This document shows, one piece after another, positions 1-12,090 of a stretch of DNA of 12,090 bases (positions are counted from its first letter, which is position 1; every line of letters starts with the position of its first letter). The notes beneath the pieces were generated by a model. The model did no database searches, was not told the DNA's origin, and saw only the letters and a list, made by a program, of their open reading frames with translations. A program made the translations under genes and the position numbers. Source of the DNA: a virus (taxonomy: Duplodnaviria > Heunggongvirae > Uroviricota > Caudoviricetes); IMG/VR virus record IMGVR_UViG_2740892233_000019. One strand, 5' to 3'.

Positions 1-1485
1 TTGTTAACTGAACTTGCTGATAGATTTTTTGGTTCACGTTCTGATGACCGTAAAGAGCTTTTAGAACAAGTTAAGCGTGAAAAAGAGTTAAGAAAATCTG
101 CTCAACAACAAGCTCGAAAATCAACACAAAAAAGTTTTTCAGAAGCTTTGAAGAATCAGACACCAGTTCTTGATGCTTCCTTGGAGGCTGTTAAAAGGCT
201 GAAAACTAAGCTTGATAAAACTGATGGTTCGTTAGATTTAAACTATCTTAAAATTATAGACAGTGATCTTACAAACTTAGATGCGTTGCGCAGTGAAATT
301 AAAACGCCTATCAAACCTCCAAAACTTGGAATGTATGAAGAGAAATATAGAGACTACAGAGATAAATTTAATGAGTTCTCTGCGTATATTCTACAAATGA
401 AGTTAGCAATTAATAAACTTGATTCTGAATTAAATAAACTTGAGCCTTCATTGTCAGCGAAAAATCACCTTGAAAAAAATCAAGGTATTATTAATTCTAA
501 ACTAACTAAGTTTAATAACACGATAGAGGAGAAGATACATTCTCTTTTAAAAAAATGGGCCGATGAAATAAAGGTTGATCGAAGTGATTATTATGCTAAA
601 ACTATATCAGTTGTTGATTCAATAGATAATGATTCACAAATTGAAAATGTGTTTAATTTGCTCGATAGTTTATATGTTGAGTCAGTTGATACCCTAACTT
701 TCAAATATCAATCAATAATAAAAGGTCTCGATAGATTATTTGAAGGTATAAACTTAGATTCAGCATTCTCATTATCTGAAGAAGAACGCTCATATTTTGA
801 AGAAAAAGCTAAAAGTTTAAACGCGCTTGCACAGTTAGGTATTAGTGTTGAGATAATATCTCATGAACTTGAAGAAATGGATTCTATGGTAACCAGAGGA
901 CTAAACTCTCTTCCTACTTCTGTAAAAGAACACCCTGGTTTTTCATTGGCGTTAAATGCTCACAGATCGCTTACTCAACAAATACGTTTCTTATCACCTT
1001 TGAAAATATCAGGTTATCAATCCAGGCAGAGAATAACTGGAAAAAATATCATGGATTATGTCCTGAAGTTCTTTGGGGAGCGTTTCGAACGGCAACGAAT
1101 AACTATTGAATTTAGTGAAGAGTTTAAGCAAATCGCAATAACAGATATACCATTAAGGATCTATCCTGTTTTTACTAATATTATCAACAATGCAATGTAT
1201 TGGGTCAGTCTGTCAAATAATAGGCTCATAAAGATTGGTTTTGTGAATTCTTTGGTTATCATAGCAAATTCTGGTCCGGCAATTGATACCGATGATATCC
1301 CGCGACTATTTGAACTATTTTATAGCAAAAGAGCAAATGGACATGGGGTAGGTCTGTATCTATGTCGAGAAAACCTTGCTGTTGCACATCATAAAATATG
1401 GTATTCAGAACCTGATGAAGGCGATAACTATTTAATAAAAGATGGCGCTAATTTTGTGATCCAGTTCAATGGAGTGGAGTTCTAA
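1..1485 (+). CDS. Sensor histidine kinase, 5'-truncated at window edge (coiled-coil-rich N-terminal part, HisKA-like H-box, HATPase_c catalytic domain)
   Basis: Open frame from base 1 with no in-window start. H-box-like ISHELEE (His codon 862-864). N-box NIINNAMYW (about 1177-1203). G1-like NSGPAI, F-box FELFY, G2 box GHGVGL (1339-1356). Stop TAA at 1483-1485. Lys/Glu-rich, heptad-like upstream part. Confidence 0.75.
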   Translation: MLTELADRFFGSRSDDRKELLEQVKREKELRKSAQQQARKSTQKSFSEALKNQTPVLDASLEAVKRLKTKLDKTDGSLDLNYLKIIDSDLTNLDALRSEIKTPIKPPKLGMYEEKYRDYRDKFNEFSAYILQMKLAINKLDSELNKLEPSLSAKNHLEKNQGIINSKLTKFNNTIEEKIHSLLKKWADEIKVDRSDYYAKTISVVDSIDNDSQIENVFNLLDSLYVESVDTLTFKYQSIIKGLDRLFEGINLDSAFSLSEEERSYFEEKAKSLNALAQLGISVEIISHELEEMDSMVTRGLNSLPTSVKEHPGFSLALNAHRSLTQQIRFLSPLKISGYQSRQRITGKNIMDYVLKFFGERFERQRITIEFSEEFKQIAITDIPLRIYPVFTNIINNAMYWVSLSNNRLIKIGFVNSLVIIANSGPAIDTDDIPRLFELFYSKRANGHGVGLYLCRENLAVAHHKIWYSEPDEGDNYLIKDGANFVIQFNGVEF

Positions 1486-1486
1486 T

Positions 1487-3235
1487 ATGACAGTGGCAAA
1501 TTATAATTCTCTTGTCCAGAAAACTTTCTGCGAAAATGCAATTCGTTCCGTTGTCATGATTGATGACGATTTTCTGACGTATTCTGAATCAATCAGGGCG
1601 TTGAATAACGAAGTTGATTTAGACTACAACAAAATTGACTCATCTAAACGAGCCGCTACTCTTGAGAGCTTTTTTCAATCTAAAAATATGATTTGTGATG
1701 TTGACAATGGTTCTGTTAATTTCGATGTGGATCGGATTAGAAAATCAGATCTTATTATTGTAGATTATCATCTTGATAATAATGCACCTGATAAAACACT
1801 TAAACTATTACAAGATTTGAAAGACTCCGATCATTTAAATATGATTGTAATATATACTAGAGAGAATTTAGAAACGGTTTGGATGCAGATATCATCGACT
1901 CTCAAAGGTGCTCTGGATATCAACAGCTTGATCATTGACTACGATAATGAAGATGTCCAAAGTTATTGGGAAGACGTTGTATTACCGAACTTAAATGATA
2001 ATGGTAATAAAGCTCTCACAAGAGATGAAATAATAGCCTATATTAAAGACAGTAAGCCTTGTAGAAGAATTAAAAGATTAATAAATGATGATGCTGTGTT
2101 GGAGGATCAAAAGGATAAAAACTTCATTGCAAAAATGATTGCAGAATATGCTGTGTCTAGAAATGCAATTATTTCTAGCAACACATCTGGCAATGTCATT
2201 CGGGGTGATGAAAGCGGAGTAAAATGGATTCAATGTGGTAATATCTTTGTCTCCCTATTTCATAAGGTTCAAGATGATCATGAAAACGATGGAGATAGGA
2301 TTTGGCAAACTCTCAATGATTCTCTCATTGAATGGAAACCATCTTATTATCAGTTAATAAAATCTGAAATTCAGAATGCAATCGAAGCTGAGGCTTTATC
2401 TTTTGTAAATCATTTGGCTAACGATCATTACGGTCAAGCTGCGTGGTTAAATGAGATATTAAAATCAGACTCGCCTGATATTAGATGTAGAAATATTGAC
2501 TTTGTATTTGGTAATTTATCAGAAGAGCTTTATCAAAGACTTAAAAATAATAATACGCTGGATGAATTTATCAAAAGTGTTTTTGATAGCTATTCAAATG
2601 AATACGCTAACAGCGGAGTTGCTGCATTGCTCCAATATTGCTCTTCAAAAATGGATCTGCCATCAAATAATGATACTTATCACGAAATGTATCATGCTTT
2701 AAATATGAATTTGTCTTCAAAGAATTTTGAAGATGGTCATATTTCTACTGGCACTATTTTCTTTGATACAGAGTCGAACAAATGGTATTTATGTGTATCT
2801 GCGGCATGTGATTTGGTTCCTACTCAGGGTAACGACCCTCACCATGTAAGATTAAGTCCGCACAGGCTCATTAAAGTTCTGGAGCTTTTTAACGCCAGTC
2901 AGAGTAAAGCATTGCCATTTGCTGAACATTCGAAATATATATATGTAATGCATAAAAATCAAAGAAAATATCTCTCTATTTTCGAAGGGGATAAAACGCT
3001 TCCTGTTGTTGATTATATGGTGGTGTTGAATCATGGAACAACAGTTGATGGCGAAGAAAAAAATATTATTTCTGCCGTGTTTTTAAGTAATATGGATGGC
3101 AACGTGCAAAATGTTCCTGTCCGACTCAAACTTAAATCTCAACTGAGAACTGGTTATGCAGAAAGATATCAGGCTATAGCGTCTCAGTATAGCTCAAGGA
3201 TTGGTGTGGATTATGTATCAATGATGCTACCATAA
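1487..3235 (+). CDS. Receiver (REC) domain protein fused to a large uncharacterized C-terminal domain (about 430 aa); candidate effector/output partner of the upstream kinase
   Basis: ATG at 1487 preceded by GGAG (1476-1479) and placed 1 nt after the upstream stop (TAATATGA), supporting coupling; the ORF track's ATG at 1469 has no Shine-Dalgarno. REC hallmarks aligned by eye to CheY: VVMIDDDF acidic pair (DDD codons 1562-1570), LIIVDYHLDNNAPDK candidate phosphoacceptor Asp (1763-1765), MIVIYT conserved Thr. Remainder shows no motif I recognise. Confidence 0.65.
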   Translation: MTVANYNSLVQKTFCENAIRSVVMIDDDFLTYSESIRALNNEVDLDYNKIDSSKRAATLESFFQSKNMICDVDNGSVNFDVDRIRKSDLIIVDYHLDNNAPDKTLKLLQDLKDSDHLNMIVIYTRENLETVWMQISSTLKGALDINSLIIDYDNEDVQSYWEDVVLPNLNDNGNKALTRDEIIAYIKDSKPCRRIKRLINDDAVLEDQKDKNFIAKMIAEYAVSRNAIISSNTSGNVIRGDESGVKWIQCGNIFVSLFHKVQDDHENDGDRIWQTLNDSLIEWKPSYYQLIKSEIQNAIEAEALSFVNHLANDHYGQAAWLNEILKSDSPDIRCRNIDFVFGNLSEELYQRLKNNNTLDEFIKSVFDSYSNEYANSGVAALLQYCSSKMDLPSNNDTYHEMYHALNMNLSSKNFEDGHISTGTIFFDTESNKWYLCVSAACDLVPTQGNDPHHVRLSPHRLIKVLELFNASQSKALPFAEHSKYIYVMHKNQRKYLSIFEGDKTLPVVDYMVVLNHGTTVDGEEKNIISAVFLSNMDGNVQNVPVRLKLKSQLRTGYAERYQAIASQYSSRIGVDYVSMMLP

Positions 3236-3248
3236 TTATTATATTTTA

Positions 3249-3288
3249 GGCGTGGTGATTTTTTTTCGCCATGCCTATTTTATATTTA
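3249..3288 (+). terminator. Candidate intrinsic terminator for the kinase/REC operon
   Basis: Imperfect inverted repeat GGCGTGGTGA / TCGCCATGCC (10 bp with two G-U pairs) around a T-run loop, followed by U-rich tail TATTTTATATTT. Lies 14 nt after the 1487..3235 stop, between convergent genes. Confidence 0.4.
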
Positions 3289-3306
3289 TCATCACAATGA
3301 TGTTGT

Positions 3307-3723
3307 TTATTTTTGTTTAAGTCTTCTAAGCTTCATGCATTCTAATGAGAATAATAATAGAGTTGTGCTGTATATAAAGCCAGAGTTAGTTAATAACTTT
3401 AAATTTAATGCTTCAGGATTTTCACTGAGAAAGTGAAAGGCATAAACTAAGTATACAGCTAAAGTAGCCGTTCCAATTGTTGGTCCAATATCGCCTTGAT
3501 CATGAGGTTCAAGGTTTACATTGAACTTGAAGATTAGCCATTCAAATCCCCAAGTAAAAAAAACAACTAATATCATGGCTGCGAATAATTTCGCGATGTT
3601 ATCTGCTGATGGATTCATCAGAACAGATTGTTTCTGAAAAAATTCACAAAGTGAGAGTCCGAAAAAAATAAAAAAAAGTGGTCTGGAACTAAATTTTTCA
3701 AAAACTTTGAATAGGGTTTCCAT
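3307..3723 (-). CDS. Small integral membrane protein (about 4 predicted TM helices), unknown function
   Basis: 138-aa ORF with hydrophobic stretches LFFIFFGLSLCEFF, FAAMILVVFFTWGFEWLIF, TLAVYLVYAFHF, FIYSTTLLLFSL. GAAGG-like RBS upstream of ATG at 3723. Sits between integrase and the kinase/REC cassette. Confidence 0.5.
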   Translation of the reverse strand: METLFKVFEKFSSRPLFFIFFGLSLCEFFQKQSVLMNPSADNIAKLFAAMILVVFFTWGFEWLIFKFNVNLEPHDQGDIGPTIGTATLAVYLVYAFHFLSENPEALNLKLLTNSGFIYSTTLLLFSLECMKLRRLKQK

Positions 3724-3761
3724 TTTCTTTACCTTCAGGATTATATTAGCTATTCTGATAC

Positions 3762-4991
3762 TTAGGCTACCAGAGCATTTGATCTTTGAGCTTGAACGTA
3801 ATCACTCCACCATTGCATCAAACTCTGTCGCTCTATCAGATATTCTGCACGATTGTATGCTGCGATAATTTCATCTTTTTTCGAGTGGGCAAGCGCTGCC
3901 TCAAGAACTTCAGCTCTGAATTTACCAGACTCCTCTGCCGCTGTTCGTGCAATAGAACGCATACCGTGAGCTACAAGCTCGCCTCCGAACCCCATTCGGA
4001 TGATAGCTGCGTTGGCTGTTTGTTCATGCATATGATTAAGAGGCGCTTTTATGCTGGGGAAAACCCATTCTCTATGCCCACTTATTGATTTCATTAATTC
4101 AAGGATGCGCAAAGCTTCTTTACTCAAAGGAACTTTGTGAAGCTTTTTCATTTTCATGAAATCAGCAGGAATGTTCCAAATGCTGTTGGTTGTATCAATA
4201 TCAGACCACCTTGCGCGAACGGCTTCACCCGGACGAACCCATGTCAACAATTGCCATTCAATTAGCATACGTGTTTCCAACCGGATTGACGCATTCGTCA
4301 AAGATTCCATAAACCTTGGCAATTCGCTTGGGGGAAGGGCAGGCATATTTTGCTTTTTTGGTTTACTGAATCTTTGACCAAGGTTGTCAGCCGGGTTGAA
4401 CTCAATAAGTTCTTCAGTAGCTGCCCACCGGAAGATTTCATTCAGACGTGAAATGATACGGCGTAGAGTTTCCAATACGCCTCGTTGCTCAATAGGATCA
4501 AGGTGTTGTTTTAAGAGCTTAGGTCGGATCTCATTGATAGGGACATTACCCAGACCGGGAAAGACATTTCTCTCTAAGCTGCGCCAGATGTCTGCTGCAT
4601 GGTCTTGTGAGATACCTGATGTCTTTACCTTCTCATCTAACCATTTCCGCGCTACGGCTTGGAGAGTGTGCTCAGTAGCACTCTTTAATGCCTTCGCCTT
4701 ATCGTTGTTATGGATTTGGGGATCAACACCATTTGCCAGAAAGGAGAGATATTCATCACGTAAGGCTCTGGCTCTTGCAAGGGTAAGGTGAGGATATGTC
4801 CCAAGGCTCATTTTGGTTCTTTTCTTGCTCACGGGTACTGCATACCTGAAATACCAATTTTTCTTGCCTCCTTTCGCCAAAGGAGCGATTCGTAGAATCA
4901 GACCATCACCGTCAAACAAGTTGATTTCTTTATCGGCTGGCTTGGTGCTTTTGATTTCAGTGTCAGTGAGCTTCTTAGCGATTTTTGCCAT
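3762..4991 (-). CDS. int: Tyrosine recombinase / integrase, P4-type (IntA-like, the family associated with ssrA-integrated islands)
   Basis: N-terminus MAKIAKKLTDTEIKSTKP...DGDGLILRIAP...WYFRY matches the P4/IntA-type N-terminal signature as I recall it. Catalytic boxes: RPGEAVRARW (Arg), HGMRSIARTA (His-x-x-Arg), AYNRAEY (Tyr). Start at 4991 preferred over 5033 (better RBS GAGGG, matches family N-terminus). Confidence 0.9.
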   Translation of the reverse strand: MAKIAKKLTDTEIKSTKPADKEINLFDGDGLILRIAPLAKGGKKNWYFRYAVPVSKKRTKMSLGTYPHLTLARARALRDEYLSFLANGVDPQIHNNDKAKALKSATEHTLQAVARKWLDEKVKTSGISQDHAADIWRSLERNVFPGLGNVPINEIRPKLLKQHLDPIEQRGVLETLRRIISRLNEIFRWAATEELIEFNPADNLGQRFSKPKKQNMPALPPSELPRFMESLTNASIRLETRMLIEWQLLTWVRPGEAVRARWSDIDTTNSIWNIPADFMKMKKLHKVPLSKEALRILELMKSISGHREWVFPSIKAPLNHMHEQTANAAIIRMGFGGELVAHGMRSIARTAAEESGKFRAEVLEAALAHSKKDEIIAAYNRAEYLIERQSLMQWWSDYVQAQRSNALVA

Positions 4992-5155
4992 TTTGGGACC
5001 CTCGGTTTTTGGACCCTTCTTAGTGGGTCCCATTCAGGGTGCCATAACTCGTAGTTCTCAGCAATTCTCACTGGACGACAATAGACGTAAAAAAGCCCGC
5101 AGAGCTTGTGCTGTGTGGGCTTAGTAGACTTCATTGAACTTCAAACAACTAAAAA

Positions 5156-5180
5156 GTGGAGCTGGCGGGAGTTGAACCCG
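5156..5180 (-). other. Attachment-site core: 25-nt copy of the tmRNA (ssrA) 3' end (T-arm plus acceptor 3' strand), without the tmRNA body
   Basis: Minus-strand sequence CGGGTTCAACTCCCGCCAGCTCCAC matches the E. coli ssrA 3' terminus as I recall it. Sequence beyond 5180 diverges and no complementary acceptor 5' strand (GGGGCTG / GGAGCTG) is present, so this is neither a full tmRNA nor a tRNA. About 165 bp upstream of the integrase start. Confidence 0.7.
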
Positions 5181-5289
5181 TGCCCGAGCAATGCTTAACC
5201 CATTGAATAACAATGCATTCTCTGTTTAAAAATGCCTCAAGTGCATTTTGAGTGCATTTTCTGGTCCTCTCTTGGTCCATACAACGAGA

Positions 5290-6198
5290 TTAAGTGGCCA
5301 CTTGAAGTTCCGGCCCTGCGTCGCTATCTATTAACGGCTGACCTTGAACCATTTTTTCAACCATATCGTTTGAAGGATATGGAACCCCGAGCTCAACCGT
5401 ATTAGGGTTGGAACGGTGGGTTTCAACAAACGATGTTCCGTTCCATTTTTTTGAAAGGTAGATTATTCCTTCAAAGGCTGCAGGGTCCTGTTTCTGAGAC
5501 TCTAAGATCATGTGGAAGCCACGACGTTCTATCCCGCGTAAGAAGCTGGAGAAGCACTCCCTCAGTAATTCGTCATCCAAATCCTTGAACTTGATACCCT
5601 GCGCAAGAAACTCGAAATAATTAAGAATATATAAAAGGCCATTGATGGCATCCCTGTACTCATCGGGGACCTTCATATTCTTGTATTCTTCTTTGTCTGG
5701 GTTGCAGCGCCACTCTGATAGTTCTTGTGGTACATAACGCATGCCCCGATAGAATTTGGTGCTGTTCCGAAGCTGTTTTTGGTACTCCGGGCTTGTTCGG
5801 GTGTTAATGATCATGTTCAGCGTGTGGGACCTGCGCGTGTTAGCAGCGGACGTTATGCATTGTATCCACCATCCCATTCCAACGAGCATTCCTGTAACCA
5901 TGATCGAAAGCGATGTTTGATAGGCCGGTGTGTACCTTAAAATTGCATATCCAATAAGGATAATCACATAACAAACAGTGCTGAACATAGGAAGAAATTC
6001 TGCAGTGTCTGGATAGCGTTTTTTGATGAAGCAGAAGATAGAAGATATTGCTGCACCAGAACCAGCAATGACGATCAGCCAATCAATGATGGCGATGCTA
6101 AATGGTAGTTTTCCAGGGTAGATATAAGTAAAAAGTGCTCTGACAATCATCATTAGAGCAAAAATTGTAGCGCTGACGTTGACTAATGTTCTCGCCAT
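5290..6198 (-). CDS. Membrane-anchored protein (N-terminal multi-TM region, about 170-aa soluble C-terminal domain), unknown function
   Basis: ORF track gives 5290..6231; start at 6198 (MARTLVNV, AGGA about 10 nt upstream) preferred because 6231 sits inside a GC-rich stem-loop. Hydrophobic helices ATIFALMMIVRALF, IAIIDWLIVIAGSGAAISSIFCFI, VCYVIILIGYAIL, MVTGMLVGMGWWI, then a charged C-terminal half. Confidence 0.5.
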   Translation of the reverse strand: MARTLVNVSATIFALMMIVRALFTYIYPGKLPFSIAIIDWLIVIAGSGAAISSIFCFIKKRYPDTAEFLPMFSTVCYVIILIGYAILRYTPAYQTSLSIMVTGMLVGMGWWIQCITSAANTRRSHTLNMIINTRTSPEYQKQLRNSTKFYRGMRYVPQELSEWRCNPDKEEYKNMKVPDEYRDAINGLLYILNYFEFLAQGIKFKDLDDELLRECFSSFLRGIERRGFHMILESQKQDPAAFEGIIYLSKKWNGTSFVETHRSNPNTVELGVPYPSNDMVEKMVQGQPLIDSDAGPELQVAT

Positions 6199-6210
6199 CT
6201 TATTGATTCC

Positions 6211-6239
6211 TATAACAAAAGACCTCCGCATGGGAGGCC
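6211..6239 (-). promoter_or_regulatory. GC-rich stem-loop followed by T-tract on the minus strand (terminator- or attenuator-like) immediately upstream of the 5290..6198 start
   Basis: Minus-strand GCCTCC-CATGC-GGAGGT hairpin followed by CTTTTGTT. Lies about 440 nt downstream of the lambdoid integrase stop and just upstream of the next ORF. Confidence 0.3.
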
Positions 6240-6680
6240 TTATTGTGCTAATGGAGGTTTGTTTTAAAATTTTAGGTTGTAGTTAACCTTCACCGAAACC
6301 TACGGTCAGTGTCTTTTTCATAGTGTTCACTCCAGTTGTGGTGCTTCGCCGATACCTACGTTAAGCTCTTGAAAAGTAAAAAAACATAAAAGTTTTAGAA
6401 TTTGTGGAGCACAGGATAACAGTTTGTACTGGGACTCATCAAGTACTATCAGTGTCCTTGCACTGTCCTAGTGAAAATTTATTGCAATAAAGTAACTTAC
6501 GTGAAGTCAAGAAATATATTTGCACTCCATTTCTTGCTATGATGTAAGTTATTGATTTTAATTAAATTTACAATTACCTAAATGAACTATGGAAACTATC
6601 AATAACATAGATGATAGCTCATTTCACAAAAAGCAATGGTAGACTCATTCTTAATTTTCATCAGCCTTAAGCCTATGTAC

Positions 6681-7856
6681 TCAGCTTGACACAACATTTA
6701 TAGACGTTTTACCATCGTATTCAGCCAGGTATTTACCGTAATTGCGGAACAGCATTTCCGGCCCCTTATGCCCCATCTGCCCGGCAAGCCAGAAAAGGTT
6801 TACACCCTGGCTAATGTGTCTGGTGGCGAATGTGTGGCGCGTCTGGTACGGGTTACGGTAGCGCACACCAGCTTTTTTCAGGGTCGGCACCCATGCTTTT
6901 TTACGGATAGCGTCGGCGTTCGTCCAGGGTTCTCCCGTTTTCGGATCGCTGAATATGAACTCACTTTTCATAAAGGTGTATTGCTTCTGCGCCTGCAGGG
7001 CTGCCAGCGCCTCACTGTTCAGCTCCACCTTACGGGTACCGGCTTTTGTCTTGGTGCCTTTAAGTACCCCTACGACACTGGCCGCCTGAACGTGGGCTGT
7101 GTTCGCGATGGTGTCGAGATCAGCCCAGCGCAGCGCGCACAGTTCTGAGCTCCGCAGACCTGTATTGAAAGCAAAGCGGAACAGGTTTTCCCATTCCCTG
7201 TACCTGCAGCTCTGGTAAATGGCAAGGGTCTCCGCTGGCGTGAACGGGTCAACCTCGTAATCGTCGGCGCTCGGGCTACTGTCGATCACGTGGTACCGGC
7301 TGGCGCTGACGAGGGTTACCGGGTTAATGGTCAGCAGGCCATCCGTAACAGCTTCATCAATGGCGCTGCGCAGAAATGACAGGTTATTCCTGATTGTTTT
7401 CAGCTTAGTTTTTCGGCTGGCTATCCAATTTTTTAGTATCGCAGGCGTCAATTCTGTTACATGTAGTTTATGTAGTTCTGATAGTGCTGATAGACATTTT
7501 TCGTAACCGCCAATGGTTGACGGCGACAGATTACGGTTTATGCAAATTTTCAGGTATTCATCAAGATAGGACTTAATATTTTTGGTTTTCTTTACTACAC
7601 CGAATAACTCCAGTTTTTTGGAATTGGGGAAATATTTCGCATATTCAAACGTTCCGCTGGCGATCTGATTTTGTATCTCCCCTAGCAGGCGCTCAGCATA
7701 TTTTATACCACGTGTATTTGCCTCAAGCCGAGATAGGGGCTCCCTGCAAAGAACCCCTTTATATGTGAAAGTGATAACTAGTGTTGAAGCAGTTTTATGC
7801 TTACGAATAGTTACTCCTCTTGGCAGAGATAATAATCCTTGTTCTTTCTTGCCCAT
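6681..7856 (-). CDS. int: Phage integrase (tyrosine recombinase) of the lambdoid prophage
   Basis: C-terminal catalytic boxes: GLRSSELCALRWADLD (Arg), TRHTFATRH (box II, LRHxFAT-like), LFRNYGKYL (Tyr). Start at MGKKEQ (7856) preferred over 7883. The excisionase ORF overlaps its 5' end, as is typical for int-xis pairs. Confidence 0.85.
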   Translation of the reverse strand: MGKKEQGLLSLPRGVTIRKHKTASTLVITFTYKGVLCREPLSRLEANTRGIKYAERLLGEIQNQIASGTFEYAKYFPNSKKLELFGVVKKTKNIKSYLDEYLKICINRNLSPSTIGGYEKCLSALSELHKLHVTELTPAILKNWIASRKTKLKTIRNNLSFLRSAIDEAVTDGLLTINPVTLVSASRYHVIDSSPSADDYEVDPFTPAETLAIYQSCRYREWENLFRFAFNTGLRSSELCALRWADLDTIANTAHVQAASVVGVLKGTKTKAGTRKVELNSEALAALQAQKQYTFMKSEFIFSDPKTGEPWTNADAIRKKAWVPTLKKAGVRYRNPYQTRHTFATRHISQGVNLFWLAGQMGHKGPEMLFRNYGKYLAEYDGKTSINVVSS

Positions 7857-8020
7857 TTTGAAACCTCTATTAAGTCGACCCAACGCTCTTTAACCCCGTC
7901 GACTTTTAATACATGTACCCCTTCTTTCCATATTCCTCTTTGTATCCGTTTGTTAACGGCATCAACCGTTTCTCCCGCGTTGCGGCAGTAGGTTGATATA
8001 GGTACGCAATCCAGCCCCAC
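7811..8020 (-). CDS. xis: Excisionase-like small DNA-binding protein (Xis)
   Basis: 69-aa basic ORF immediately upstream of and overlapping int. GTG start at 8020 with GAGGTGA Shine-Dalgarno 5 nt upstream. Sequence pattern resembles the excisionase-like family by eye; no strong motif check is possible. Confidence 0.55.
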   Translation of the reverse strand: MGLDCVPISTYCRNAGETVDAVNKRIQRGIWKEGVHVLKVDGVKERWVDLIEVSKWARKNKDYYLCQEE

Positions 8021-8178
8021 AGTTCACCTCACACAACATTCAGCCCACGACAGTGACACCACACTTCAAACATTCGTTTCACAATTTCACGACAGTAGAA
8101 ACCGTCAACATCTCGCGTCAGGTCATAGCGATTGCCGAATGTCTTGCGAACCCATAACTCAAAAACCGTATGCATGTA

Positions 8179-8421
8179 TCACCTCCGTTGCATTGCGCGC
8201 AATTTTTTCAGGTGCTTTTCCTGCTCAGTGTCCGCCAGGATTTTGCAATACTGCTGGTGGTCAATATGTTCGAACAGGCAGTTGAACTCACCAATGCATA
8301 CCCGCCCGGAGTGTCCGTCCATACGTCGAAAGAACACAGAGCGGTCCGTACAGCGAGTAATCACCACAGGGTATCCGGCCCTGTCCGTGTATATTTGCCC
8401 GCGTTGAATAAGTGCGAACAT
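8179..8421 (-). CDS. Phage early-region hypothetical protein (80 aa)
   Basis: ORF in the minus-strand operon; GGGGA RBS before ATG at 8421; only 4 nt from the stop of the upstream 27-aa ORF. The opposite-strand ORFs at 8132..8407 and 8170..8454 are judged spurious. Confidence 0.5.
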   Translation of the reverse strand: MFALIQRGQIYTDRAGYPVVITRCTDRSVFFRRMDGHSGRVCIGEFNCLFEHIDHQQYCKILADTEQEKHLKKLRAMQRR

Positions 8422-8425
8422 GAGA

Positions 8426-8509
8426 TTATCCCCAGCGGCAAATCGAAAAAATAATCAGCGCAATCGATATTGCAACACCTACAATTGCAAATGCTTCAGG
8501 CCAACTCAT
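8426..8509 (-). CDS. Small hydrophobic peptide (27 aa, single predicted TM helix), absent from the ORF track
   Basis: Hand translation of the minus strand gives MSWPEAFAIVGVAISIALIIFSICRWG, stop TAA. Its ATG (8509..8507) overlaps the TGA stop of the DUF551 gene as ATGA, indicating translational coupling. Confidence 0.35.
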   Translation of the reverse strand: MSWPEAFAIVGVAISIALIIFSICRWG

Positions 8510-9369
8510 TGACTCACCTCCTGCGGCGGTTCTGGTAGAGGCATCCAGTGGGTTACATCGCATTCAGGGATGCTGATATCATCACCAAGCCACCCTTGAC
8601 CTTCAGACCAGCATTGCACGTAATACCCGTATTCTGTGTTCACTACGCACCACTGTGCGTCGTTCGGCATTAGCTCACTACAGCTTATCCAACCATCCGG
8701 AGTTACCGGAACTTGCGGAATGGCTGTCTGCTCTCGAACGTCATTAGGCGCTATAGGTTCTGCTGCCAACTGACTGGCATATTTGTTAATGGTAACGATA
8801 AGCTCTTGCTCAGCCTCATCCAGATAATCACCGATACCTCGCCTGTCACCGTCAAAATCATCGAAATCGGCACGAATCTTGGCAACCTTCTGGATTGCGG
8901 ACAACACCTCACTAGGAATTACCGGATAGTTGGTTGACGTTTCCGCGATTTCCCGAAAATTATTGGTTGACGAATTCTTATTTTCCCGAAAGTTTCTGGC
9001 CTGAAGCATGGCGGCGCGGCAGGCATTCCAGCCAGTAGCGTAATATTTCGCATCCTGCCAGCTCGTTTGTACATTTGAGTACGCTTTTTCCTCTGTCATG
9101 GCCTCTGGTATTGATGCCGGTGCAATTCGTGGCAGGCCGATATATAGTGGTACATCTCCCGGCTCCATCGAATTGACGGGCCAAATATACGCATCACTAC
9201 CATGGTTAATGAGCGCAATCCCCGAAGTATCGATGATGCCAAATGGCTCCGCTGTCAATGCAGTCAATGCAATTTCATAAGCCCGACGCTCAATATTGTC
9301 TCGCACGTCCAGGCTGCTTATGCGCTCTTTGATTTCTTTAATCAGTTTCTTATCGGTGAAAGTGGTCAT
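8506..9369 (-). CDS. Phage protein with C-terminal DUF551-like domain (Ea22-like early-left region protein)
   Basis: 287-aa ORF ending in the Cys/Trp-rich motif CSELMPNDAQWCVV...HWMPLPEPP, which I recognise as the DUF551 signature of lambdoid prophage early proteins. One nt separates it from the upstream gene. Confidence 0.65.
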   Translation of the reverse strand: MTTFTDKKLIKEIKERISSLDVRDNIERRAYEIALTALTAEPFGIIDTSGIALINHGSDAYIWPVNSMEPGDVPLYIGLPRIAPASIPEAMTEEKAYSNVQTSWQDAKYYATGWNACRAAMLQARNFRENKNSSTNNFREIAETSTNYPVIPSEVLSAIQKVAKIRADFDDFDGDRRGIGDYLDEAEQELIVTINKYASQLAAEPIAPNDVREQTAIPQVPVTPDGWISCSELMPNDAQWCVVNTEYGYYVQCWSEGQGWLGDDISIPECDVTHWMPLPEPPQEVSQ

Positions 9370-9370
9370 C

Positions 9371-9700
9371 TCACTCTCCTTTGATGCGAATGCCAGCGAC
9401 GCGTAGTGCGTGTTCTAAGTCAATCAGGCAAAGCCAGCTGCCATTTTCTTTAGGTATCATGACATGTCGCTTATCAGCATTTATTGGGTGCCCATATCGA
9501 AGGTCGTAGCGAGTCGGTAATTGAACTTCCCTCGCTTCCAGTTCTGTAATGCGTTTGTTTTTAGCTTCTAGTTCATCCAGCAGCACCAGCACAACCTGCG
9601 GTGTGACTTTCATACGAAACGCAAGCAATTTTTGCGGCGTTGCCACGACTTTTATTGCTTCTGCCGCCTCACGCAGTGCCTGATAGTCAATCTTGCTCAC
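9371..9700 (-). CDS. Ead/Ea22-like family small phage protein
   Basis: N-terminus MSKIDYQALREAAEAIK resembles the QALREAAE-type start of Ead/Ea22-like prophage proteins as I recall them. ATGA overlap with the upstream gene. Confidence 0.55.
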   Translation of the reverse strand: MSKIDYQALREAAEAIKVVATPQKLLAFRMKVTPQVVLVLLDELEAKNKRITELEAREVQLPTRYDLRYGHPINADKRHVMIPKENGSWLCLIDLEHALRVAGIRIKGE

Positions 9701-9936
9701 TGGTTGCCTCCTTTACGGATCTGCGCTGCGATGCGCGAAAAAAAAGCCTCCCGCGTATGGCTGTTAAGAGCTGGCGCGAACGCCGCGTTAAGAACGGCAG
9801 CATCACAGCCGTCATCGATATAGAGCGCAATTTTTTTCTCCAGGCGCGCTTTGGCTTCCTGCAACTGCATACCCCGGCACGCACGCGGGATATAATCAGC
9901 AATTTGAGCGATAGCTTTTTCGTTCTGTTTAAACAT
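9697..9936 (-). CDS. Phage early-region hypothetical protein (79 aa)
   Basis: Protein-like composition; overlaps neighbours by 4 and 8 nt in operon fashion. Preferred over the overlapping Arg-rich 9687..10049 frame. Confidence 0.5.
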   Translation of the reverse strand: MFKQNEKAIAQIADYIPRACRGMQLQEAKARLEKKIALYIDDGCDAAVLNAAFAPALNSHTREAFFSRIAAQIRKGGNQ

Positions 9937-10132
9937 GCTTCACCTCGATAGGCTTGATGGTGTCTAACAGCAGTCGGCGGCGCGTATTTTCTGCAAAATG
10001 GCGGCGTCCAGTTTCTTTGTGGTAAAACTCGTTTTTGCCAACGACCCACATCCGCTCTGTTTGGTGCAATTTTTTTACCTGCGGGCCATCTTTGGTGATC
10101 ACGGTACCGGTATGGGTTTTTACGATTGTCAT
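9929..10132 (-). CDS. Phage early-region hypothetical protein (67 aa)
   Basis: Small basic ORF coupled by a 4-nt overlap to the PAPS-reductase-like gene upstream and an 8-nt overlap downstream. Confidence 0.5.
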   Translation of the reverse strand: MTIVKTHTGTVITKDGPQVKKLHQTERMWVVGKNEFYHKETGRRHFAENTRRRLLLDTIKPIEVKHV

Positions 10133-11007
10133 GCCACGACCTCTTCGAATTTCAACTCCAATTGGTCACCCCAGATTTCACATGATTCGGAACACGAACC
10201 AGTATCAAACCGCTTGGCCAGCACCATCGCCTGATACAAACTTCTGTAGTCGCTGTCGGCATACATTCTGGCAATCCCGTCAAGCGTCAGGTGACCACGG
10301 TACATAACGTCTTTACCTGTTCTGCGATGACCATCCCTGACGTGTTTGCCTGTAACCAGTTCATTAAAAACCCGCATCAGACCAGGTTCGTCTTTACATG
10401 CAAGCCCCAGCTTTTGCGTTGACTTTTTGATGCAAAAAACACAGTTCCCGAGGTGCTCCGGGATTTGCAAATCAAAAGGTTGTTTTTGCCACCACCGGAT
10501 AACATCCGACTTATCAAAATCTGACAGCTCGGCAAGATACCGGACGCCAGGTTTCGGTTTCAGCCTACGGGGTTCGTCCGCACGAATACCGAGCCATGTG
10601 ATGTAATTCCCTCGCCCAAAATGGTCATCGCAATATTTCGTGAAAGGGGTGAGTTTTAGCCTGTCAGTACAGAATGCGCCGCCGATGTATGGCGTACCGT
10701 ACTTTTTAACCATGTCCATAAACGGTTTAAGCACCGGCATTCGCGTCTGAATATCCTTTGGTTCCCATTCCGTATAACCATTTGGCTGCCCAAGCTCTGG
10801 ATTTATATCGACCTGCAACACAGTTAGCGGTATGCCCCAGAACTTCAAAACCTCCCGAATAAAGCGGTATGTCAGCGGATGTTCGCAACCGGTATCCATA
10901 AAGATGTAGCAGACGTTATTGCCAGCCTTTCTTTGTTCTTCCATCAGGTGAACAAGATATGCAGATGTTCTCCCGCCAGAAAAACTAACTACATGAGTTA
11001 TGCACAT
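10129..11007 (-). CDS. Phosphoadenosine-phosphosulfate (PAPS) reductase-like PP-loop protein, phage type
   Basis: N-terminal PP-loop motif SFSGGRTS (SGGxDS-type). C-terminal cysteine pairs CVFC and CSESC. This family is commonly found in lambdoid prophage early-left regions. Confidence 0.8.
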   Translation of the reverse strand: MCITHVVSFSGGRTSAYLVHLMEEQRKAGNNVCYIFMDTGCEHPLTYRFIREVLKFWGIPLTVLQVDINPELGQPNGYTEWEPKDIQTRMPVLKPFMDMVKKYGTPYIGGAFCTDRLKLTPFTKYCDDHFGRGNYITWLGIRADEPRRLKPKPGVRYLAELSDFDKSDVIRWWQKQPFDLQIPEHLGNCVFCIKKSTQKLGLACKDEPGLMRVFNELVTGKHVRDGHRRTGKDVMYRGHLTLDGIARMYADSDYRSLYQAMVLAKRFDTGSCSESCEIWGDQLELKFEEVVA

Positions 11008-11303
11008 TTGCGTAATTCCGATAACTCGTTGAAGCGTTCCATAAACATCCCGTAGGCATGGCCCGGTGCCAGTGGAATCACTTTGAACATCTCTGTTGCC
11101 GGGATACCTTCCAATACAGGCCAGAAAGAGCCATCATCAAGTCCGAGATCGCGGCGTTCGGTTGCCAGCATGATGAGATCGGCATATTTCACTGGCGTGC
11201 TCATAACAGGAGGTAACCCGTATTTCTCACGGATTACGGCGTCTATTTTTTCTTCCATCCGTTTATAGTCAGGAAGAAGTCGTTTCAGTGGCGCGGGGAT
11301 GTC
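10998..11303 (-). CDS. Phage hypothetical protein, 5'-truncated by the N-gap
   Basis: Open frame runs into the N-run; the clean part encodes DIPAPLKRLLPDYKRMEEKIDAVIREKYG...ELRKCA. Overlaps the start of the PAPS-reductase-like gene by 10 nt. Confidence 0.45.
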   Translation of the reverse strand, partial: DIPAPLKRLLPDYKRMEEKIDAVIREKYGLPPVMSTPVKYADLIMLATERRDLGLDDGSFWPVLEGIPATEMFKVIPLAPGHAYGMFMERFNELSELRKCA

Positions 11304-11304
11304 C

Positions 11305-11314
11305 NNNNNNNNNN
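11305..11314. other. Run of 10 N: assembly or scaffold gap
   Basis: Ten consecutive n characters. Reading frames on both sides are interrupted and flanking composition and gene content differ. Confidence 0.95.
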
Positions 11315-11316
11315 AC

Positions 11317-12090
11317 TTTACTGATGGAACAACAAACCAGTTGAACATCAGCAACTCCCTGATTCATGGTTCAATCACTTCAATGCTGCCTATGGGTGAA
11401 AGCAGTGATGGTCATTATGTCTATCAGTTCTCTGAATACGGTACTGATCGTGTAATTGATGATAATTGGCATGATGGTGATGTATTCACTTTAAATATTG
11501 CTAATTCTACAATTGATGACGATTATGAAGGTTTATACTTCACTGATTCATATCTGGACGGTGACGTTACCAAATATACTAACGAAACCTTCCATACCCC
11601 AGCTGGTGAAGGTGAAGAATACGCCGGTTTGTTTGCAAACGGTGGTGTTGGCCTTGGGCTGGCAGTGAATCTTGATGTCGAAAGTAACATCAATATTTCT
11701 AACAACTCCCGCGTTGCTGGTATCAGCCTGACTCAGGGTAATACCGTAAACAATACTTACACTACTGAATCTCATACTTGGGATAACAATATCTCAGTTA
11801 CCGATTCCACAGTGACTTCAGGTTCTGTAACTACTCTGGAAGACAGTGGTTTCTATGGTAACTCTGCGGAACCTAGTGATTACTCTGGTAACGGCGAAGC
11901 TAATGATGTAGCTCTGTATTTCAGTGATAGTGCGGCTTCAAATTACTCCATGAAAAACAATGTTTATTTCAGCAATTCTACTCTGCTGGGTGATGTTGTT
12001 TTCGCAAGTACTTTCAACGCAAACTTCTATCCTCAAGGTCATGACAGTAATGCCGATGGCGTACTTGGACACCAATGGTGGCTGGGCTGA
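11317..12090 (+). CDS. Asn/Ser/Thr/Gly/Asp-rich repeat protein fragment, 5'-partial (adhesin or autotransporter passenger-like)
   Basis: Frame open from the gap to TGA at 12088-12090. Composition and short repeats (NISNSLIHGS, NIANSTIDDD, NINISNNSRVAGISL, NNISVTDSTVTSGSV) are typical of beta-helical adhesin passenger domains. The ATG at 11299 is chance, lying before the gap. Confidence 0.4.
   Translation, partial: FTDGTTNQLNISNSLIHGSITSMLPMGESSDGHYVYQFSEYGTDRVIDDNWHDGDVFTLNIANSTIDDDYEGLYFTDSYLDGDVTKYTNETFHTPAGEGEEYAGLFANGGVGLGLAVNLDVESNINISNNSRVAGISLTQGNTVNNTYTTESHTWDNNISVTDSTVTSGSVTTLEDSGFYGNSAEPSDYSGNGEANDVALYFSDSAASNYSMKNNVYFSNSTLLGDVVFASTFNANFYPQGHDSNADGVLGHQWWLG

Follow-up and report, generated by a model that had tools for sequence, protein, structure and literature searches.

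A truncated kinase-receiver gene pair of the HEF_HK / Response_reg_2 family in an ssrA-linked island of Escherichia coli

We analyzed a 12,090-nt stretch of DNA from a virus record (IMG/VR IMGVR_UViG_2740892233_000019; the whole stretch is called the window here) that opens with the 3′ part of a histidine kinase gene and an intact gene for a receiver protein. An initial annotation, made from the sequence alone, had put this pair forward as a candidate phosphorelay-type defense module. We find instead that it belongs, by domains and gene order, to the HEF_HK / Response_reg_2 family, both of whose domains are Pfam families published in 2021, and that the copy in hand has decayed. It is a degenerate copy of a known kind, an ordinary relic and not a new working defense module. 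As the annotation had noted, the two genes form an AT-rich, coupled operon: GC content is 0.29-0.37 over positions 1-3750, compared to 0.43-0.56 farther right. The operon is followed by a gene for a small predicted membrane protein, an integrase gene and an att core (Table 1).

In the kinase open reading frame (ORF), Pfam identifies a HEF_HK dimerization and histidine phosphotransfer (DHp) domain at residues 278-336 (nt 832-1008; 27.3 bits against a cut-off of 24.1) and a HATPase_c catalytic domain at residues 384-475 (nt 1150-1425; E 2.9e-11), and the ORF additionally contains a coiled-coil region. The H-box histidine, H288, lies in a SHELEE motif at nt 862-864, and the N, G1 and G2 boxes of the catalytic domain are all present. 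Only 1 nt separates the kinase gene from the receiver gene, with a GGAG just upstream of the TAATATGA junction, which translationally couples the two genes. A terminator-like hairpin with a 12-bp stem and a T run, found by consensus scan, begins 12 nt past the receiver gene's stop codon and marks the end of the operon.

The receiver protein matches Response_reg_2 at residues 19-175 (E 3.5e-31). Its phosphoacceptor, D93 (nt 1763-1765), is invariant among 37 homologs, and both phosphoacceptor codons had been correctly placed in the initial annotation. The other invariant residues of the receiver domain are the acidic pair D26 and D27, T124 and K260. In a structure model, the receiver fold reaches approximately residue 285; it takes in a helical insert (about 145-226) and the conserved lysine 260. 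The annotation had described a receiver fused to about 430 residues of unrecognizable sequence; the fusion stands, but because the fold extends this far, the unassigned part is closer to 300 residues. This region, residues 286-582 (nt 2342-3232), is conserved and is modeled as a helical bundle followed by a beta domain. No second domain was found in the protein by Pfam, NCBIfam or PADLOC, neither the kinase nor the receiver protein received a functional name from PADLOC, NCBIfam or PHROGs, and the PADLOC defense models matched neither window protein.

Table 1. Features at the left end of the window and the evidence for each.
Feature	Position (nt)	Strand	Evidence or remark
5′-truncated histidine kinase gene, 3′ part	1..1485	+	Pfam matches, alignment to the intact kinase of L002
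TAATATGA stop/start junction	1483..1490	+	Direct sequence reading; GGAG just 5′
Intact 582-aa receiver-effector gene	1487..3235	+	Pfam Response_reg_2
Terminator-like hairpin, 12-bp stem then T run	3247..3277	+	Consensus scan
138-aa predicted membrane protein	3307..3723	-	Convergent with the kinase-receiver operon
P4/IntA-type tyrosine integrase	3762..5033	-	Pfam and NCBIfam; RefSeq start codon at nt 4991
att core, 25-nt match to the ssrA 3′ end	5154..5178	-	Pattern search

Bellieny-Rabelo et al. 2021 (PMC8011034) introduced HEF_HK (PF19191) and Response_reg_2 (PF19192) and described the family by sequence analysis as a restriction-modification-linked "two-component-like" system. In their data, which already included E. 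coli strains, the two genes are linked in 91.6% of 644 regions, the kinases are soluble and most often have the architecture HATPase_c_3 + HEF_HK + HATPase_c (174 of 222), and the neighborhoods are enriched in type II restriction-modification genes, C5 methylases and Vsr (PMC8011034). The window pair shares both domains, a soluble kinase encoded immediately upstream of the receiver, and the conserved histidine and aspartate. A GenBank entry for prophage CP-1639 and its integration site (AJ304858.2) also labels the same stretch a "remnant integrative element" with a "histidin kinase-like protein".

We surveyed the neighborhoods of 77 loci from species-representative genomes, clustering their ORFs together with those of two further loci, L002 and L003. 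The receiver protein is present in 78 of the surveyed loci. The kinase gene lies directly upstream in 74 of these 78, at a median gap of 11 nt, and encodes a protein with a median length of 991 aa. A C5 DNA methylase accompanies the pair in 67 loci and a Vsr endonuclease in 35, which is the linkage published for the family and not that of a housekeeping regulon. The commonest orders are methylase-kinase-receiver (25 loci) and the same trio with Vsr (15 loci), and 40 loci show no genes beyond this trio, Vsr being optional. The unit conserved across the loci comprises a C5 DNA methylase, a kinase of about 990 aa with a MORC-like GHKL head, and a receiver protein of about 580 aa, and Vsr often comes next. 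L002, an 86%-identical relative, has exactly this form, with a C5 methylase, a 991-aa kinase and a 582-aa receiver protein beside a P4-type integrase and smpB. Its kinase (5034-8009) contains HATPase_c_3 at 28-139, HEF_HK at 775-833 and HATPase_c at 881-984. The same trio occurs in Pantoea dispersa (L003, ML137047.1, 5841-11746), and the kinases of the two loci are 990-991 aa long.

On these relatives, PADLOC recognizes the methylase as MTase_II (8.5e-82) and gives no match for the receiver protein. They differ from type II restriction-modification systems in that MTase_II comes with no conserved nuclease gene: across the 78 loci no further nuclease gene is conserved, and an HNH_2 gene occurs in 3 only. 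These HNH_2 endonuclease genes lie downstream of the receiver gene in Serratia (L007, 12677-13438, minus strand) and in loci L013 and L018, and the Serratia copy matches the PADLOC model PDLC04132 "HNH" (E 1e-129). A separate nuclease, such as the one in the Ambrosia operon discussed below, may thus be part of some versions of the system. The PADLOC model PDLC03419 "REase_II" matches the L002 kinase only in its GHKL head (residues 13-136, E 1.6e-9), so some type II restriction-enzyme annotations may reflect this head and not a nuclease. One apparent relative, a 5.6-kb contig from a "Bacteroidales bacterium" metagenome-assembled genome (L004, DAIPZW010000118.1), matches the E. coli receiver at 99% by tblastn, and its integrase ORF is identical. 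The contig is almost certainly a binning error, with DNA of E. coli assigned to a Bacteroidales genome.

The initial annotation had also described the pair as cargo beside a P4/IntA-type integrase at an ssrA-type att core, and this part is upheld. The integrase contains Arm-DNA-bind_3, Phage_int_M and Phage_integrase domains, matches NF007246 at 4.8e-132 and shares 81% DNA identity with the integrase of L002. About 125 nt upstream of its start, 23 nt (GGTTCAACTCCCGCCAGCTCCAC, 5156-5178) are identical to the 3′ end of E. coli ssrA; the ssrA-end pattern matches once in the window and not at all in 200 shuffles. Neither Rfam nor ARAGORN finds a tmRNA or other RNA gene in the window. Where a strain has no additional insertion, the integrase directly adjoins ssrA and smpB, and the genes run glaH, ygaQ remnant, IS3, kinase tail, receiver, 138-aa ORF, integrase, ssrA, smpB, which places the island at ssrA. 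The lineage of the window differs: between the att copy and ssrA it has tandem insertions of a DUF4760 gene and of a lambdoid prophage that brings its own integrase.

Compared to its relatives, the E. coli copy lacks both the HATPase_c_3 head, which is present in 83% of family kinases, and the methylase. The kinase is indeed cut by the window edge, as had been noted, but the edge is not the whole cause since the genomic copy is itself truncated. The E. coli remnant encodes 612 aa, begins 354 nt upstream of the window and aligns to residues 380-991 of the intact L002 kinase at 88% identity; the ORF in the window corresponds to its last 494 residues. The stretch is carried by 574 of 5,426 complete E. 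coli genomes, always on the chromosome, and every E. coli match to the L002 trio starts at the same position, with kinase codons 1-379 missing. In the E. coli locus L001, homology to the L002 kinase starts at residue 380, on the base after the right end of IS3. No methylase is found within 15 kb in L001 or in any E. coli match, and Pfam and PADLOC detect no methylase and no recognizable restriction endonuclease in the window. The sensor domain and further genes that had been expected upstream are thus deleted in E. coli, and the methylase and GHKL head exist only in relatives outside this species. Because these parts were lost by a genomic deletion, we do not regard their absence as a natural variant architecture.

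The breakpoint can be read directly from the strains. An identical IS3-kinase junction is present in 484 genomes; in most genomes it reads ...GAGATG-TTATCT-[IS3]-CGCAGGGG... (compare L001 13380-14650). In the O111 strain of AJ304858.2 (L086, 2700-2760), the same breakpoint is joined to the ygaQ remnant without IS3, as ...GAGATG-CG-CGCAGGGG... IS3 may have caused the deletion or may have arrived afterward, as this strain shares the breakpoint without the element and no target-site duplication is visible at the IS3 junction.

Further damage has accumulated in individual strains. The first 3,300 nt of the window are identical to E. coli NZ_CP074958.1 and differ by one mismatch from O26, O103 and other strains. 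At codon 486 of the full kinase, 33 nt upstream of the window start, NZ_CP074958.1 has TAG in place of CAG, and RefSeq accordingly lists the kinase as a pseudogene with an internal stop in this genome but as an open 572-aa ORF in O26 11368 and others. Because NZ_CP074958.1 and the window have the receiver variant H200N in common, the source of the window probably has the TAG stop too. We rejected the internal stop as a general feature of E. coli, since other strains confine it to 03_3013-like genomes. A different strain, GZ04-0086, has a frameshift in the kinase tail and IS1 in the receiver gene. Altogether, six E. coli genomes show 7 nonsynonymous or disruptive changes and 1 synonymous change, small numbers that are consistent with relaxed selection inside E. 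coli. The longer history is different. Compared to L002, the kinase tail has a ratio of nonsynonymous to synonymous substitution rates (dN/dS) of 0.048, the receiver gene one of 0.085 and the integrase one of 0.055; within the receiver gene it is 0.138 for the receiver domain and 0.050 for the C-terminal domain. Such strong constraint through most of the genes' history implies that the damage is recent.

Taken together, these results lead us to conclude, with a probability of roughly 0.7, that the left part of the window is the decayed right-hand end of an ssrA island that once carried a three-gene, restriction-modification-linked phosphotransfer system. A number of points weigh against this conclusion. 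Neither ORF is interrupted in most E. coli strains (572 aa for the kinase tail, 582 aa for the receiver), the coupling junction and the DHp and catalytic domains are intact, and the GHKL head is naturally missing from 34 of 222 family kinases (PMC8011034), so that a kinase without it might still work to some extent. Between E. coli copies there are 0-2 substitutions only, and the excess of damaging changes consequently rests on small numbers. Searching the literature, we found no experimental work on the HEF_HK / Response_reg_2 family, and the idea that the kinase head senses unmethylated DNA is purely conjectural.

Several of the same observations would support a truncated pair that still works in E. 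coli as a two-gene defense or toxin module, with a headless kinase that is made from an IS3-derived or internal promoter and phosphorylates the receiver-effector, no methylase being needed. The kinase tail is open in O26 11368, AZ155, A8 and KSC1031, as is the receiver ORF, the DHp and catalytic motifs and the junction between the genes are undamaged, the locus is kept in the 574 genomes, some family kinases do without the head (PMC8011034), and the ssrA slot holds defense cargo elsewhere, such as DarT/NADAR in KSC1031. Nevertheless, the ORF starts at a deletion or IS breakpoint without its native promoter or start context, and it has been disrupted by nonsense, frameshift and IS1 mutations in different strains. 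The copies are also nearly identical, so that their presence reflects recent shared ancestry and not demonstrated selection, and a single N40A substitution in the equivalent GHKL head abolishes defense by Ambrosia. We therefore find it improbable that the pair still functions in this way, and retain decay as the better account.

Ambrosia (AbrR/A/B/C/D) is an anti-phage operon of Pseudomonas aeruginosa that needs its methylase, its GHKL-headed kinase, its receiver and its HNH nuclease alike (bioRxiv 10.1101/2025.09.30.679545). Substitution of the GHKL asparagine (AbrB N40A) or of the phosphoacceptor aspartate (AbrC D60A) abolishes protection, and its authors favor transcriptional control by the kinase-receiver pair AbrB/AbrC (bioRxiv 10.1101/2025.09.30.679545). 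As in the intact relatives described here, the genes for a DNA methylase, a GHKL-headed kinase and a receiver protein stand together in one operon. The head of AbrB is 27% identical to that of the intact kinase (E 2e-10, also 1e-5, comparing the first 399 aa of AbrB), and N40 of AbrB aligns with N36 of the intact kinase, inside the segment that is deleted in E. coli. The remaining parts differ. Ambrosia has an N6-adenine methylase (AbrA), a 209-aa receiver (AbrC), a separate HNH nuclease (AbrD) and an XRE regulator (AbrR), whereas in the present family the methylase is of the C5 type, the receiver is part of a 580-aa fusion with the effector, and a separate nuclease is usually missing. AbrC shows no similarity to the receiver protein (best E 6.9), and the window contains no HNH or methylase gene. 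We conclude that the pair is not Ambrosia, but that Ambrosia is its closest validated relative, with a probable likeness confined to the type of kinase.

The comparison with Ambrosia also bears on what the receiver protein does. The family could be a regulatory two-component system in which the C-terminal region binds DNA or a regulator and controls the methylase or restriction genes. The kinase and receiver of Ambrosia appear to induce restriction-modification-like genes upon infection, the kinase heads are homologous, and the separate HNH_2 gene in some relatives could be the true effector. However, the output domain of a conventional response regulator was not detected in the receiver protein: Pfam finds no helix-turn-helix, winged-helix or other DNA-binding family in the full protein or in 8 diverse C-terminal fragments, and nothing beyond the receiver domain in these fragments even at E up to 5. 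This agrees with the initial annotation, which had described the fusion as lacking a DNA-binding output. The 209-aa AbrC is not similar to the receiver protein, and the 40 loci limited to the trio, Vsr being optional, offer nothing else to regulate. In addition, the C-terminal domain is under tighter constraint than the receiver domain (dN/dS 0.05 compared to 0.14). We rank a regulatory role lower because no DNA-binding domain was found, and consider it doubtful.

The C-terminal domain is a conserved element of the protein with its own set of invariant residues (N406, G422, C436, C441, P445, A479, Q552, R554, Y557, R571, G573 and D575). The receiver protein has 111 homolog clusters at 22-100% identity covering most of its length, and 96 of these (86%) are 553-630 aa long; in a plasmid collection there are only two distant homologs. 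Searching 1.84 billion representatives with a profile of the C-terminal domain retrieved 649 clusters at 50% identity. The best 150 profile matches are either proteins of about 560-680 aa, with the domain at roughly residues 280-600, or fragments, and among these 150 it is never attached to another N-terminus. A profile search of the PDB by sequence gave no match, and Foldseek against the PDB gave no significant match. Comparison with the MazF / CcdB / Kid toxin fold yielded a sequence identity of 5-11%, while hhalign of the C-terminal profile with E. coli MazF and CcdB gave probabilities below 1%. No antitoxin-like partner gene is present. The resemblance to a MazF/CcdB-like toxin fold is a lead only.

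The initial annotation had likened the pair to the Detocs family, given there as kinase, Hpt and receiver-effector. In fact, Detocs consists of DtcA, a standalone receiver DtcB, which is not an Hpt, and DtcC with a PNP or other known killing domain, and phosphotransfer from the kinase to the receiver-fused PNP effector is required for defense (bioRxiv 10.1101/2023.01.24.525353). The general logic is alike, with a soluble kinase and a receiver fused to a C-terminal domain that does not bind DNA, carried on a mobile island, and the working principle is likely to be shared: autophosphorylation of the kinase and transfer to a receiver that unleashes the fused effector. The components are not. The pair comes with no buffer receiver equivalent to DtcB, either in the window or among the conserved neighbors of the 78 loci, and it has no PNP ATP-nucleosidase domain, no PADLOC model match and no detectable sequence relationship to Detocs. 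Conversely, Detocs itself has no methylase and no MORC-like head, and neither the GHKL/MORC-like kinase head nor the tie to a methylase has been described for it. That the cassette is a member or variant of Detocs is contradicted by these differences and highly improbable. We also looked at a HATPase/REC candidate in the DefensePredictor paper, but nothing ties that system to the HEF_HK / Response_reg_2 family.

The intact kinase head has a further precedent in the MORC/paraMORC GHKL ATPases (Iyer, Abhiman and Aravind 2008, PMC2292703), as it is a HATPase_c_3 GHKL domain encoded beside a cytosine methylase and Vsr. Unlike those proteins, it is fused to a DHp domain and catalytic core and not to a nuclease or helicase partner, and in the window it has been deleted.

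How the intact system may have worked can be proposed from these comparisons. Family identity, the gene order of the relatives, the truncation and the conservation of the phospho-residues are shown by the data, whereas each biochemical step is inferred. The original kinase would have been a soluble protein of about 990 aa with a MORC-like GHKL ATPase head, a coiled coil, a HEF_HK DHp domain and a HATPase_c domain. Vsr repairs the deamination of 5-methylcytosine. Linkage to a methylase, together with Vsr, points to self-marking of DNA, and the C5 cytosine methylase would mark the cell's own genome. Action against an invader could come only from the kinase and the receiver protein. The GHKL/MORC-like head might sense DNA status or infection and thereby drive autophosphorylation of the DHp histidine by the C-terminal catalytic domain. 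The phosphoryl group would then move to D93 of the receiver, which would switch on the conserved domain of about 300 aa as an effector, possibly a toxin or a nuclease. With Detocs as a precedent, such a phosphorylation-gated effector appears to be the most plausible logic. The more specific proposal that the intact family is a new kind of immunity, a methylation-guided phosphorelay in which a MORC-like, DNA-sensing kinase activates through His-to-Asp transfer an effector of new fold (perhaps a CcdB/MazF-like barrel, toxin or nuclease), is put forward tentatively.

In the E. coli copy, one deletion probably removed the methylase gene together with kinase codons 1-379, leaving a break that lies at the IS3 end in most strains; the best-matching strain carries a nonsense codon in addition. 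What is left, a kinase tail and an intact receiver gene with neither sensor nor self-marking, is most likely inert. We infer from the loss of methylase and sensor head, with the effector spared, that the effector may be harmless unless it is activated by the kinase. Because the cassette is incomplete, a phenotype from the E. coli copy is unlikely.

The remaining genes of the window lie outside this system. The 138-aa membrane ORF has no match in Pfam, PADLOC or NCBIfam. Citrobacter amalonaticus, Erwinia and Serratia (L005-L007) have homologs at the corresponding position, and L002 is without one. The ORF is island cargo outside the conserved system and encodes a putative membrane protein. The segment of about 505 bp that holds it is missing from the intact island L002, and its sole family match is to a PHROG of "unknown function". 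Three PHROGs families (phrog_8137, phrog_7659 and phrog_6556) were built from the same E. coli island proteins encoded within window positions 1-3723, and phrog_8137 is a 572-position profile, equal to the truncated kinase. Prophage predictions have thus swallowed the island remnant, and these families could mislead phage annotation.

On the other side of the att copy, a DUF4760 protein with predicted N-terminal membrane segments (313 aa by mechanical ORF call) is encoded at 5290-6231 (minus strand), between the ssrA att copy and the prophage integrase. The contents of this slot vary, with DarT and a NADAR antitoxin in KSC1031 and another integrase in A8, and it looks like a hot spot for cargo. 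Positions 6681-11300 (minus strand) hold the early region of a lambdoid prophage headed by a second, lambda-type integrase (Arm-DNA-bind_2), and include DUF4222, Eaa/Ea22-like, PAPS-reductase-family (10129-11007) and yfdR-like 5′-deoxynucleotidase genes; this prophage and the island are integrated in tandem at ssrA. Beyond a run of 10 N (11305-11314), the last 776 nt of the window (11315-12090) come from an autotransporter gene. In complete O26/O103 genomes, about 3.3 Mb separates that gene from the remaining window sequence, and together with the N run this identifies the window as a scaffold join of two unrelated contigs.

The copy described here should not be counted as a defense system in inventories of E. 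coli, even though about 10% of complete genomes carry the stretch. If the phosphorelay proposal is true, E. coli lineages could lose the methylase and survive only because the sensor head went with it in one deletion, and about 10% of E. coli genomes would contain a latent, intact effector gene. The role of the conserved C-terminal domain is a question for the intact relatives and not for the window. The family is widespread (the 649 clusters), tightly linked to cytosine methylases and ends in a conserved domain of about 300 aa without a confident structural match, and its intact enterobacterial versions in Pantoea, Citrobacter and Serratia are ready material for tests. Knowing how this domain acts, and whether a MORC-like head can drive a histidine kinase, would link restriction-modification, MORC ATPases and two-component signaling.

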